A stretch of DNA of 38,916 nt from an uncultured Bacteroidota bacterium (GTDB lineage Bacteria; Bacteroidota; Bacteroidia; Bacteroidales; 4484-276), in contig CAJATL010000394.1 of assembly GCA_903944895.1 (NCBI GenBank), positions 1 through 38,916 on the forward strand. The letters are read 5' to 3'. The notes under the pieces are model-generated. The model saw nothing but the letters and a program-made list of their open reading frames with translations, ran no database searches and was not told where the DNA came from. Shown in pieces: positions 36,342 to 38,230 of the stretch. The translations under genes were made by a program, and so were the position numbers. Within the stretch, counting starts at the first letter, position 1; the number at the start of each line of letters is the position of its first letter.

Positions 36342-36652
36342 GACTCATATTTATTAAAAGATTAAAAAAACTCATATTTAAAAAGTTAGCAGAACCGACC
36401 ATCTGGTGAAGGCGGAGGTATTGTTGAGTAAAATTCTCCAGCCAGATTTTTAATATCGGGTTTTACCAATGATCAGATTTTAAATCCAATATTCTGATAA
36501 AACACCACATCACCTACCCGGCAGGTTTATTTTACGGTATCCCAACCCTTTCAGGCCTGCATCAGACTGTTTTCCAGGTTTTTCAACCTAAAAACCAGCC
36601 GGTCTGTTTCGCTTTTCTGATCATTTTTAAAAGTGATCAACTTTTTTCACCT

Positions 36653-36729
36653 CAACTAGATCCAAATTCTAGGCGCCTTTAACCACTCGGCAACATCAAA
36701 GTACAGTTGATGGTGGGATTCGAACCCAC
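36653..36729 (-). ncRNA. Split tRNA-like module pair of unit 1. The 3' module (T-arm GTGGG-TTCGAAT-CCCAC plus 3' acceptor CATCAAC) is followed after 5 nt by the 5' module: acceptor TTTGATG, Gln/Glu-type D-arm GCCGAGTGGTTAAAGGC, and anticodon stem-loop CTAGA-ATTTGGA-TCTAG (anticodon TTG).
   Basis: Read from the minus strand. The T-arm precedes the D-arm, which is the reverse of canonical tRNA order. Confidence 0.5.
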
Positions 36730-37204
36730 GAAGATTTCAGGAAAACTGCTAATAAAAAAGGAGCATATCGAAGCTTAAAAAGCAGCAATACTACGGAGCT
36801 GTGCAGAAACTCTCATCAGGCCTTGCTCGTTTAACCTTTTCCCTGCTTCCTTTCGGAAGATCTTTTGTGCTGTGAGCACAGTTTTTTTTATATCAATGAA
36901 CGTCGGTAAAAATTTTCAAACTTCAAATGCAAAGTGCGTGGTACCGGCCATCTGGTGTAAGCGGAAGTTTTGTTAAGTAAACCCTCCTGTACGATTTCCT
37001 GAGTTGGGCTTTTTAAAAATCCGGGACAAACCCGTAACTTTTTATCAAACACAGCTCCGGCGATCAGGCAGAATTATTTTACGGTATCCCAAATCCTGCA
37101 TAGCCTTCAACAGGTTGTCGTTTAATTTTGAAAAATTAAAAAACCAGCCGGTACGCTCCACACTTTTAATGATGATCATTTTTAGAAGTGATCAGCTTCA
37201 TCCA

Positions 37205-37274
37205 ACAGATCCTCAGTCTGTCGCTCTAACCATTGAGCTACATCGTCTACAACAATGAGGGGACTCGAACCCCT
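37205..37274 (-). ncRNA. Split tRNA-like module pair of unit 2. The 3' module (AGGGG-TTCGAGT-CCCCT plus 3' acceptor CATTGTT plus G) is followed after 2 nt by the 5' module: acceptor GACGATG, D-arm TAGCTCAATGGTTAGAGC, and anticodon stem-loop ACAGA-CTGAGGA-TCTGT (GAG).
   Basis: Acceptor strands pair 7/7 (two G·U). Where a T-arm is expected after the variable loop there is a GAAGC-TGATCAC-TTC hairpin. Confidence 0.5.
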
Positions 37275-37754
37275 AACCTTTGGGCCTACCATGAGGGAAA
37301 ACTGCGTTGCGAAAAGCAGCATATTGCAACCTAAAAGGAAACAATACTATGGCGTTATACAGAAACGCTCATCAGGTCTTTGCCGTTTCACATTTTCCCA
37401 TGCTTCCTCGCGGAAGATCTTTAGTGCAGAAGCACAATATTTTTTATATCAATGAACGTCGGTTAAATTTTCATTCTTCATAAGTAAAGTGCGTTGTACC
37501 GGCCATCTGGTGTAAGCGGAAGTTTTGTTAAGTAAACCCTCCTGTACGATTTCCTGAGTTGGGTTTTTTAAAATCCGGGATAAACCCGCAATTTTTTATC
37601 AAACCCAACTCCGGCGAGCAGGCAGAATTGATTTACGGTATCCCAATTCCTGCATAGCCTTCAACAGACTGTCGTTTAATTTCGAAAAATTTAAAAACCA
37701 GCCGGTACGCTCCACACTTTTTTAATGATGATCATTTTTAGAAGTAATCAGCTT

Positions 37755-37830
37755 CATCCAACAGATTATCAGTCTGGTGCTCTAACCATTGAGCTACATC
37801 GCTCTGAACGATGAGGGGATTTGAACCCCT
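37755..37830 (-). ncRNA. Split tRNA-like module pair of unit 3. The 3' module (AGGGG-TTCAAAT-CCCCT plus 3' acceptor CATCGTT) is followed after about 5 nt by the 5' module: acceptor AGCGATG, D-arm TAGCTCAATGGTTAGAGC, and anticodon stem-loop CAGA-CTGATAA-TCTG. That loop matches the canonical tRNA-Ile(GAT) loop.
   Basis: Acceptor strands pair 7/7 (one G·U). The changes relative to unit 2 are compensatory. Confidence 0.5.
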
Positions 37831-38023
37831 AACCTTTGGGCCTAAATGGCGGAGAAAACTACGTTGCGAAAAGTAGCATATTGCAGCCTAAAAGGTAACA
37901 ATACTACGGCGATGTACAGAAACGCTCGTCAGGCCTTTTACGTTTCGCATTTTCCCATGCTTCCTCGCGGAAGATCTTTAGTGCAAAAGCACAATTTCTT
38001 TATTTTCAATGAACGTTTTTTTT

Positions 38024-38230
38024 GTCTCCCTTTCCGGATTCGAACCGGAACTATCAATTGAGAAATTGATCTGGCAGGCTCTAAATGCGCTTCCCTACTT
38101 TACCTTCAGGTATTTCGGTGCTTCTGCAAATTCTATACGACCAGAGGCGCACTCCGGCCGGCATCATCCCACCACTCCACGGCTTAATCCAATCTTTTAC
38201 CGCAGCTCTTCCTTTTAAGCTAAAGGGAGA
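38024..38230 (-). ncRNA. tRNA-like element about 205 nt long. A perfect 7-bp acceptor pairing (5' CTCCCTT at 38229-38223 with 3' AAGGGAG at 38030-38024) and a canonical T-arm (TCCGG-TTCGAAT-CCGGA) enclose about 170 nt that do not form a standard D/anticodon structure.
   Basis: Seen directly. The interior contains a 6-bp inverted repeat GCTTAA…TTAAGC. Lies immediately 5' (on the minus strand) of the tandem array. Confidence 0.35.

Follow-up and report, generated by a model that had tools for sequence, protein, structure and literature searches.

A large tRNA-mimic RNA in tandem copies upstream of Band-7 and RtcB genes in Bacteroidota

What are the targets of the bacterial RNA ligase RtcB, and why does this enzyme travel with tRNA-like RNAs and with scaffold proteins (Ro60, Band-7)? 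A locus of an uncultured Bacteroidota bacterium (Bacteroidales; 4484-276) raises this question in an unusual form. Contig CAJATL010000394.1 of GenBank assembly GCA_903944895.1 (38,916 nt, hereafter the window) carries, upstream of genes for a Band-7 protein and RtcB, three tandem repeats in which tRNA modules stand in swapped order, the T-arm and 3' acceptor strand preceding the 5' acceptor strand, D-arm and anticodon arm. A sequence-only reading of this DNA had proposed either tRNA genes interrupted by long intervening sequences or circularly permuted tRNA genes. Our analysis indicates that the repeats are neither permuted nor intron-split bacterial tRNA genes; they are copies of a large, conserved tRNA-mimic RNA belonging to an RNA-repair operon.

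Three tandem units carry a tRNA-like module in swapped order

A repeat search of the window identified three direct repeats on the minus strand with start-to-start distances of 556 and 557 nt, in agreement with the three module-bearing units described by the sequence-only reading. Tandem Repeats Finder reported nothing for the window because the repeat period exceeds its 500-nt limit. The unit boundaries derive from repeat families, nhmmer matches (full-length for unit A) and the alignment of full-length copies:

37460 to 38016, minus strand: unit A, 557 nt
36904 to 37459, minus strand: unit B, 556 nt
36362 to 36903, minus strand: unit C, about 542 nt
36893-36901, 37449-37457 and 38006-38014, minus strand: GTTCATTGA, at the start of every unit (three occurrences in the window versus 0.5 expected)

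Units A and B are 88% identical; unit C shares 62-64% identity with either of them when gaps are counted and 69-74% in ungapped repeat families, and its 3' end lies about 20 nt ahead of the Band-7 start codon. In related loci (designated by L numbers), GTTCATTGA is also found after the 3' ends of some tRNA genes (L004 2702; L023 1648; L037 4345) and may represent a processing or punctuation signal.

Within each unit, a 5-bp T-stem with a UUCRANN loop is followed by a 7-nt strand, a loop of 3-5 nt and a complementary 7-nt strand, which together form a closed acceptor hairpin, and then by U-A (in unit C, U-U), a D-arm whose loop contains GG, a single base (in unit C, two bases) and the anticodon arm. 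In the units of the window, this last arm has a 5-bp stem and a 7-nt loop with U33 and a purine at position 37. The T-loops of the three units read TTCAAAT, TTCGAGT and TTCGAAT, the D-loops contain GG, and the acceptor strands, 3-5 nt apart, are CATCGTT/AGCGATG, CATTGTT/GACGATG and CATCAAC/TTTGATG. The sequence details given by the sequence-only reading (T-loops, acceptor strands, D-loop GG, 7-nt anticodon loops and a following hairpin) are all present. The modules, parsed from the sequence and, for units A and B, also matched by the Rfam model of the bacterial Y RNA YrlA, are arranged as follows:

37761 to 37830, minus strand: tRNA-like module of unit A (YrlA model match 37779-37834, 31.5 bits; covariation), with T-arm 37830-37814, closed acceptor hairpin 37813-37797 (7 bp, loop CAG), U8-A9 and D-arm 37794-37779
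37777-37761, minus strand: anticodon arm of unit A, loop CUGAUAA
37205 to 37274, minus strand: tRNA-like module of unit B (YrlA model match 37223-37278, 33.7 bits), with T-arm 37274-37258, acceptor hairpin 37257-37241 (7 bp, loop GUA) and D-arm from 37238
37221-37205, minus strand: anticodon arm of unit B, loop CUGAGGA
36656 to 36729, minus strand: tRNA-like module of unit C, with T-arm 36729-36713, acceptor hairpin 36712-36694 (6 of 7 bp) and class-II-like D-arm 36691-36675
36672-36656, minus strand: anticodon arm of unit C, loop AUUUGGA

Because YrlA has the identical arm order, the swapped arrangement is the signature of a known class of tRNA mimics and not the product of a mis-parse. In units A and B, the stretch from the T-arm through the closed hairpin to the D-arm is aligned by positions 27-81 of the YrlA model, which also matches five other loci with 29.5-35.5 bits; all of these matches lie below its gathering cut-off of 69 bits.

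Two comparisons across loci support the parse. In a fixed-register test, requiring perfect pairing between the 5 nt after the T-stem and the 5 nt ending 2 nt ahead of the D-stem, together with GG in the D-loop, 30 of 45 T-arms in related intergenic regions passed (25 distinct hairpin sequences), compared with 2.4-3% in shuffled or random sequence. In a MAFFT alignment of 16 modules from 13 loci, built with no use of structure, 97.1% of cells pair, against 39-51% in slid controls. Changes on both sides affect all six acceptor-hairpin pairs, bearing out the acceptor covariation claimed by the sequence-only reading, as well as three T-stem and two D-stem pairs.

A parse of 28 loci delineates what the family retains. 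U8-A9, the D-loop GG and the UUCRANN T-loop are kept, and the acceptor loops span 3-17 nt with no CCA. The anticodon arm is present in all three window copies, absent in L011, L012 and L015, and missing or replaced when L013 and L014 are considered along with these three. Two tandem modules occur in L009, L010, L025, L026, L036, L037 and others, a layout shared by most of the diverged loci. Since some loci lack the anticodon arm, this arm is optional, and the universal core consists of the T-arm, the closed acceptor stem, the D-arm and a pseudoknot described below.

The modules also mislead tRNA finders. ARAGORN reports a 'tRNA-Leu(gag)' at 37167-37247 by taking the pseudoknot hairpin downstream as a false T-arm, and the Rfam tRNA model gives two partial 33-bit matches (model positions 6-65) with the same false T-arm. 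Apart from these partial matches, the covariance model detected no contiguous open-acceptor cloverleaf inside the units; the hand parse is correct, and the tRNA calls inside the units are artefacts. Annotation pipelines should therefore be expected to call false tRNA genes within such units.

A covarying structure spans the entire unit

To describe the unit as a whole, homologues were collected with nhmmer, 14 full-length units were aligned with MAFFT, and the structure was predicted with RNAalifold. On its own, RNAalifold yielded 101 pairs, 50 of them with compensatory changes. After correction of the D-arm and addition of the anticodon stem and the pseudoknot, the curated structure comprises 112 pairs in 19 helices, with 91.5% of cells paired (39-48% in slid controls) and 55 pairs changed on both sides (21-26 in slid controls); none of 500 shuffles reached the observed values. 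That the unit represents a conserved, structured RNA containing a tRNA mimic of the YrlA type is, in our view, nearly certain. It is organized into three consecutive domains, namely a 5' domain, the tRNA mimic with an H-type pseudoknot, and a long irregular 3' arm:

37875 to 37933 (unit A), 37318-37376 (unit B) and 36762-36820 (unit C), minus strand: core of the 5' domain, located by pattern search (helices 1-6)
37992-37981 and 37973-37960, minus strand: hairpins GUGC..GCAC and CUUCC-GNRA-GGAAG ahead of the 5' core of unit A
37729 to 37755 (unit A), 37173-37199 (unit B) and 36618-36644 (unit C), minus strand: H-type pseudoknot, located by motif search
37498 to 37706 (unit A), 36943-37152 (unit B) and 36394-36603 (unit C), minus strand: 3' domain (helices 13-19)

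The 5' core is closed and multi-helical; it includes CCUG, a stem with the 11-nt loop UUUCUGUAYAN (UUUCUGUAUAG) and then UAGUAUUG, a hairpin and CAAUAUGCU. The pseudoknot generally consists of a stem (usually GAAG/CUUC) enclosing a loop of some 7 nt, followed by the linker UAAAAA and by 4-6 nt that can pair with this loop; in unit A, it reads GAAG-CUGAUUA-CUUC, UAAAAA and UGAUCA, the last pairing with the hairpin loop. About 17 loci have it in the corresponding position, with loop and partner sequences that are unrelated among them (ACCG/CGGU, GGGCA/UGCCC, AGAGG/CCUCU, CAUCGG/CCGAUG and others), and the motif count is 28, versus 2-9 in shuffles. The hairpin that the sequence-only reading had noted after the variable loop (GAAG-CTGATYA-CTTC across the units) is real, but its label as a 'non-tRNA' hairpin was incomplete, as it forms the first stem of this conserved pseudoknot. 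The 3' arm of unit A is closed by ACCGGCUGG (37706-37696) paired with CCAGAUGGCCGGU (37512-37498) and contains the invariant GGGAUACCGUAAA (37644-37632); across helices 13-19, 34 of 53 pairs are changed on both sides.

Several candidate elements were rejected. Kissing of the 11-nt loop of the 5' core with GGGAUACCG shows no covariation, and L009 is altered on one side only. A closing helix CCAA/UUGG between the upstream T-arm flank and the variable region of units A and B is not kept in unit C or L001. The hammerhead ribozyme suggested by CUGAUGAG in the 5' core fails because the relevant positions vary (CUGACGC, CUGGCCG, CUGACCA) and form a strand of a covarying stem; none of the ribozyme families in Rfam match the units. 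A preQ1-I-like riboswitch, similar in the architecture of its pseudoknot with an A-rich linker, has no Rfam match at E values up to 10, and the same holds for the group I and II intron, ROOL and GOLLD models. At gathering cut-offs, Rfam gives no match for transfer-messenger RNA (tmRNA) or known self-cleaving ribozymes; in the relaxed search (E up to 10), the tmRNA (16.2 and 15.8 bits) and beta_tmRNA (9.9 bits) models match fragments on T-arms or on a tRNA-His-like gene upstream.

The RNA family is linked to Band-7 and RtcB across Bacteroidota

The gene context of the array in the window was established from protein family searches and from the sequence:

35241 to 36341, minus strand: Band-7/SPFH (slipin-family) protein, 366 aa; Pfam PF01145, E = 5e-30; no predicted membrane segment
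33974 to 35143, minus strand: RtcB RNA ligase, 389 aa; Pfam PF01139, E = 2e-114
33912 to 33932, minus strand: terminator-like hairpin after rtcB, the first downstream of the promoter at about 38290, the RNA's own hairpins aside
38295 to 38316, minus strand: palindrome TTACGCAGATGTATTGCGTAGT, read from the sequence, followed by a Bacteroidetes-type ..TTTG.. promoter element
38025 to 38230, minus strand: element X, a second conserved tRNA-like RNA (about 205 nt), located after the promoter and ahead of unit A (nhmmer, RNAalifold)

From the promoter region (about 38290) to the end of rtcB, no terminator-like site was found besides the hairpins of the RNA itself. In L001, L002, L004, L010 and L012, the same motif, TACGCA-N8-TGCGTAGT, separates the RNA genes from the gene of the divergent WYL regulator, often occurring twice per locus, and the palindrome is probably the operator of the WYL-family regulator, whose gene in the source locus lies past the end of the window. 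In the AlphaFold model of the Band-7 protein, the SPFH domain is preceded by three N-terminal repeats, each about 45 aa long and folded into a five-stranded beta sheet. Foldseek searches with this model retrieved stomatin, prohibitin and HflK/C cages, the longest alignment in the PDB being to the major vault protein (446 columns, E = 1.6e-9).

Searches with nhmmer using the three units recovered homologues in the non-coding gaps of related loci. A DNA pattern for the 5' segment has three matches in the window (0 expected) and identified 21 metagenome contigs, and a genome scan with the Band-7 protein added Lentimicrobiaceae (98% and 92% protein identity, which makes this family the probable source lineage), Roseivirga, Lewinella, Runella, Myroides and Flavobacterium. 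Altogether, about 30 Bacteroidota loci carry one to three units: one in most, two in L002 and L023, and three in the window, L006 and L039. In every locus with sufficient flank, a unit lies directly upstream of Band-7 on the same strand. RtcB follows Band-7 in the 13 distinct loci whose sequence extends far enough, lies just upstream in L026 and is elsewhere in the locus in L020. Close Band-7 homologues in public assemblies display the same layout of a divergent WYL-WCX regulator, a non-coding gap of 1.4-2.8 kb, Band-7 and RtcB, and the divergent WYL regulator and extra tRNA genes are often found upstream of the units. Two motifs keep near-constant distances to the Band-7 start codon across many taxa and Bacteroidota families, GAUACCG near -200 and YUUCCGYY near -70 to -78.

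The window itself is ordinary chromosome, with ribosome-recycling-factor-type and UMP-kinase-type genes among others, and no match to the family was found in 50,697 phage records or in the viral contigs searched. Protein scans detected no integrase nearby in the window and no TROVE/Ro60 protein among the 25 window proteins scanned; nor does TROVE/Ro60 appear in the neighbour tables of L001-L005. When a known defence system was considered, PADLOC matched the WYL regulator only, having no model for Band-7 or RtcB.

In two Spirochaetota loci with Band-7 homologues of Breznakiella and Treponema (L020 4435-5000 and L019 4300-5000), GATACCG occurs upstream at about -180 to -204 relative to the start codon, in L020 together with a T-arm. 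The RNA family may extend beyond Bacteroidota.

Element X combines an open, covarying 8-bp acceptor stem, a D-arm and a T-arm with a structured insert of about 100 nt at the variable-arm position. RNAalifold predicts 48 pairs for it, 19 with compensatory change, and nhmmer matches it in L001 (4168-4385), L006, L023, L032, L012 and L015 (6252-6424); it has no Rfam match. Its site varies: some taxa have it upstream of the units, whereas in Myroides and Flavobacterium it separates Band-7 from rtcB.

Further upstream lies a cluster of tRNA and tRNA-like genes:

38429 to 38666, minus strand: upstream tRNA cluster (ARAGORN; Rfam scores of 54.4 and 24.5 bits)
38594-38666, minus strand: tRNA-Phe(GAA) (ARAGORN and Rfam)
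38507-38576, minus strand: aberrant tRNA-like gene with a poorly paired acceptor stem (Rfam, 24.5 bits)
38429-38504, minus strand: tRNA-His(GUG)-like gene (ARAGORN call, below the Rfam cut-off)

The tRNA-His-like and aberrant tRNA-like genes are both conserved in related loci, where the position of the cluster is occupied by arrays of up to nine tRNA genes. The tRNA-Phe(GAA) of the window and the tRNA-Lys(UUU) of L002 (4125-4197) have acceptor, D-arm and T-arm sequences in common and wholly different anticodon arms; the pattern suggests that orthologous tRNA genes of such loci have exchanged their anticodon arms. Hairpin insertions of 16-24 nt directly after GGTTC interrupt T-loops in L002 (4060-4090, 4430-4450, 5510-5545) and L004 (2650-2680, 2880-2910); they strike tRNA genes and one large-RNA unit, and resemble a small palindromic element targeting T-loop-coding DNA. 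Just upstream of the tRNA cluster of the window, a 35-codon open reading frame (38746-38853, minus strand) ending in CPPG and a stop codon is followed by a strong terminator hairpin (38681-38714, minus strand), and L002 and L004 have correspondingly placed small open reading frames with YPPG as their last residues. Given that Pro-Pro-Gly is a classic motif for ribosome stalling, the reading frame may be a translation-sensing attenuator.

Proposed function and alternative explanations

We favour, as reasonably probable, an explanation in which the structured RNA shares an operon with Band-7 and RtcB and is the cognate RNA partner of an RNA-repair particle. The three units and element X would be transcribed with Band-7 and rtcB as one unit, from a shared promoter under the control of the WYL-family regulator, and the transcript would be processed into single units. 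The RNA, bound by Band-7 or RtcB, would then act in repair, its tRNA-shaped surface recruiting or positioning tRNA-handling factors as Y RNA does for Ro60. That the units specifically are the RNA partner of Band-7/RtcB has, in our estimation, slightly better than even chances. A role as partner in repair seems the most likely one given the prediction of Burroughs and Aravind (2016), as reported by a citing paper (bioRxiv 10.1101/312249), and the cage-like predicted model of Band-7. A number of observations weigh on the other side. The near-constant start-codon spacing and the absent terminator suit a cis-acting leader equally well. The Ro-binding motif GNCGAA(N)G is missing from 12 of 14 units, including all three of the window, no Ro/TROVE gene lies nearby and the YrlA scores are far below cut-off, so that the analogy with Y RNAs is confined to architecture and gene context. 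Confidence in the Band-7 model is moderate (pLDDT 74, pTM 0.48), and co-transcription, processing, binding by Band-7 or RtcB and the role in repair are all steps that we infer.

The two proposals of the sequence-only reading fare differently from each other. Tandem tRNA genes, each split by an intervening sequence of about 480 nt, would account for the T-arm and 3' acceptor strand found some 480 nt after each 5' half in the three-copy array. This reading fails because single-unit loci (L001, L004, L011, L035 and others) keep the module with no downstream T-arm or 3' acceptor strand; moreover, the pairing partner of each 5' acceptor strand is the one just before it, the 5' strand of unit B pairing 7/7 with this adjacent strand and only 5/7 with that of the next unit, and no intron family matches in Rfam at E values up to 10. 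Decayed pseudo-tRNA debris at an integration hotspot, against which the sequence-only reading had itself argued, is refuted by the strong covariation, with more than 100 pairs in the covarying structure, and no integrase is located nearby. Split genes and debris together strike us as wholly implausible. As for circularly permuted tRNA genes, the swapped order was correctly recognized, but its reading as genes for decoding tRNAs is not supported. In this scenario, which we regard as very improbable, the flanks would be cut off and RtcB would join the variable loop to the T-stem, producing functional tRNAs, with RNase P and CCA addition opening the acceptor loop. Such a junction between variable loop and T-stem would indeed complete a cloverleaf, with an acceptor stem of 7 bp in units A and B; the gene for an RNA ligase lies next to the units, and the 7-bp closed acceptor stem of Mycobacterium smegmatis YrlA makes that RNA a substrate of RNase P, after which CCA is added (PMC4201824). 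Against it, the flanks are large conserved covarying domains and not short splice motifs, and the acceptor loops of 3-17 nt lack CCA. Escherichia coli identity rules call for A73 in tRNAs for Ile and Leu and G73 for Gln, and the discriminator bases C, G and C misfit the identities implied by the anticodons. We know of no bacterial enzyme for the cuts that such processing needs, the same arm order defines YrlA, a bacterial tRNA mimic of RtcB operons, and genes for decoding tRNAs are further argued against by the members that lack an anticodon arm or carry two tandem modules.

Other alternatives accept the structured RNA and assign it a different task. As a cis-acting leader, an unlikely though not negligible possibility, the array would be the 5' untranslated region of the Band-7/rtcB messenger RNA, and its tRNA-like domain a sensor that sets the expression of the genes behind it, for instance when a factor directed at tRNAs binds, modifies or cuts it. 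A leader would suit the invariable position of the RNA, which directly precedes Band-7 on the same strand, the lack of an intervening terminator-like site and the almost fixed start-codon distances of the 3' motifs; yet loci hold one to three full copies of which the last alone can touch the start codon, element X changes position (upstream of the units or between Band-7 and rtcB), 550 nt and the number of domains far exceed known leaders, and the closest relative, YrlA, acts in trans. An unlikely decoy or sentinel model posits that the exposed anticodon loops mimic several tRNAs, are cut by a toxin or phage-defence nuclease directed at anticodons and are resealed by RtcB, while fragments with 2',3'-cyclic phosphate might signal to the WYL regulator. 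The anticodon-like triplets do vary, both within a locus (the three copies of the window have GAU, GAG and UUG) and across loci (including GUU, GUC, UUC, UUU, UAG and GAA), with U33 and mostly a purine at 37 kept; between unit A and its counterpart in a close relative, the T-arm, acceptor hairpin and D-arm are identical and two of three anticodon bases differ (GAU/GUC). The loci also carry real tRNA gene arrays (His, Asn, Asp, Tyr, Lys, Glu, Gln and others). Several of these tRNA species are classic targets of anticodon nucleases, and RtcB seals exactly the ends that such nucleases leave. Damaged tRNA fragments are moreover known to induce the Salmonella rtc operon (PMC7790460). Conversely, no PADLOC model matches the Band-7 or RtcB proteins, and the anticodon arm is missing or replaced in the five loci listed above, so that acting as a decoy cannot be the universal function of the family, some lineages having no anticodon arm. 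It is likewise doubtful, although conceivable, that the units are the RNA of a vault-like Band-7 cage working with RtcB. Interchangeable anticodon loops on the tRNA-shaped core would then lure toxins that cut tRNAs, cleaved loops would be resealed by RtcB, and the WYL regulator would be alerted to damage by the fragments. If true, this would amount to a dedicated RNA-based sentinel and repair organelle.

The family gives the Band-7 branch of RtcB-associated systems a well-defined candidate RNA partner that is large, strongly covarying and present in culturable Bacteroidota such as Roseivirga seohaensis SW-152, Runella aurantiaca YX9 and Myroides phaeus DSM 23313, and supplies a complete tRNA mimic whose anticodon triplet changes between copies. 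It makes three questions testable: whether there is an RNA-containing Band-7 cage, whether the mimic is cut and religated, and whether the WYL regulator senses RNA damage.

Comparison with known systems

The nearest known relative in architecture is YrlA (Rfam RF02553), a bacterial Y RNA encoded in rsr-rtcB operons. Crystallography has confirmed that the effector domain of YrlA mimics a tRNA, with a loop-closed 'acceptor stem' that has the T-arm on its 5' side and the D-arm on its 3' side (bioRxiv 10.1101/312249; PMC4201824). The units share with YrlA the order of T-arm, loop-closed acceptor stem and D-arm, the retained tRNA tertiary nucleotides and the adjacent RtcB gene; more than one Y RNA (YrlA, YrlB) is present at the rsr locus of species studied, as the units are multicopy, and units A and B have the 7-bp closed acceptor stem of M. 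smegmatis YrlA. YrlA is about 110-150 nt long and has no anticodon loop, its 'anticodon stem' running into the Ro60-binding helix, whereas the units are about 555 nt (five times larger) and contain a complete anticodon stem-loop and a pseudoknot, together with a large domain on either side. The large RNA thus resembles YrlA and is not a member of the YrlA family.

The association of Band-7, RtcB and a tRNA-like RNA was already predicted in 2016. According to bioRxiv 10.1101/312249, Burroughs and Aravind (Nucleic Acids Res 2016, 44:8525) predicted that Band-7 beside RtcB has a cognate tRNA-like RNA and reported that YrlA occasionally adjoins Band-7; the same paper describes b7a-tRNA, the 'Band-7-associated tRNA-like molecule', as strongly resembling a genuine tRNA and as a proposed RNA cofactor of a Band-7 repair scaffold. 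Like the units, b7a-tRNA is a tRNA-like RNA encoded next to Band-7/SPFH and RtcB; going by the citing paper's description, its counterpart could be the present module, element X or one of the ordinary-looking tRNA genes. The 550-nt RNA, the pseudoknot and the tandem copies are undescribed in Rfam 15 and in the literature searched, in which Burroughs and Aravind (2016) is represented by citation.

Permuted tRNA genes of Cyanidioschyzon merolae and of some other algae and archaea similarly place the 3' acceptor strand and T-arm upstream, with a short linker at the acceptor end. Those genes give rise to ordinary mature tRNAs via a circular intermediate generated by splicing endonuclease and ligase, and to our knowledge bacteria have no splicing endonuclease of this type. 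Unlike them, the units have large conserved domains as outer flanks and an anticodon arm that is dispensable in part of the family. ROOL and GOLLD are likewise RNAs of hundreds of nucleotides with ornate covarying structures next to tRNA genes. They typically reside in prophages; in contrast, the units are chromosomal, are not found in the phage and viral sets searched and are tied to Band-7/RtcB.

With the vault (major vault protein, TEP1 and vault RNA) and the Ro60/Y RNA particle, the locus shares the pairing of a cage or ring protein with a small structured RNA, a likeness by analogy only, as the RNAs are unrelated in sequence, the protein model is of moderate confidence and a Band-7 cage is hypothetical. 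Finally, the experimentally studied TrcR regulon of Anabaena, in which a tRNA array, rtcB and a slipin gene are jointly controlled by a repressor and derepressed by translational stress (PMC10272220), differs in that its regulator is of the ribbon-helix-helix and not the WYL type, its genes are dispersed and no large tRNA-like RNA is reported for it, but it brings together the same set of a repressor, a tRNA array, rtcB and a slipin-family gene.

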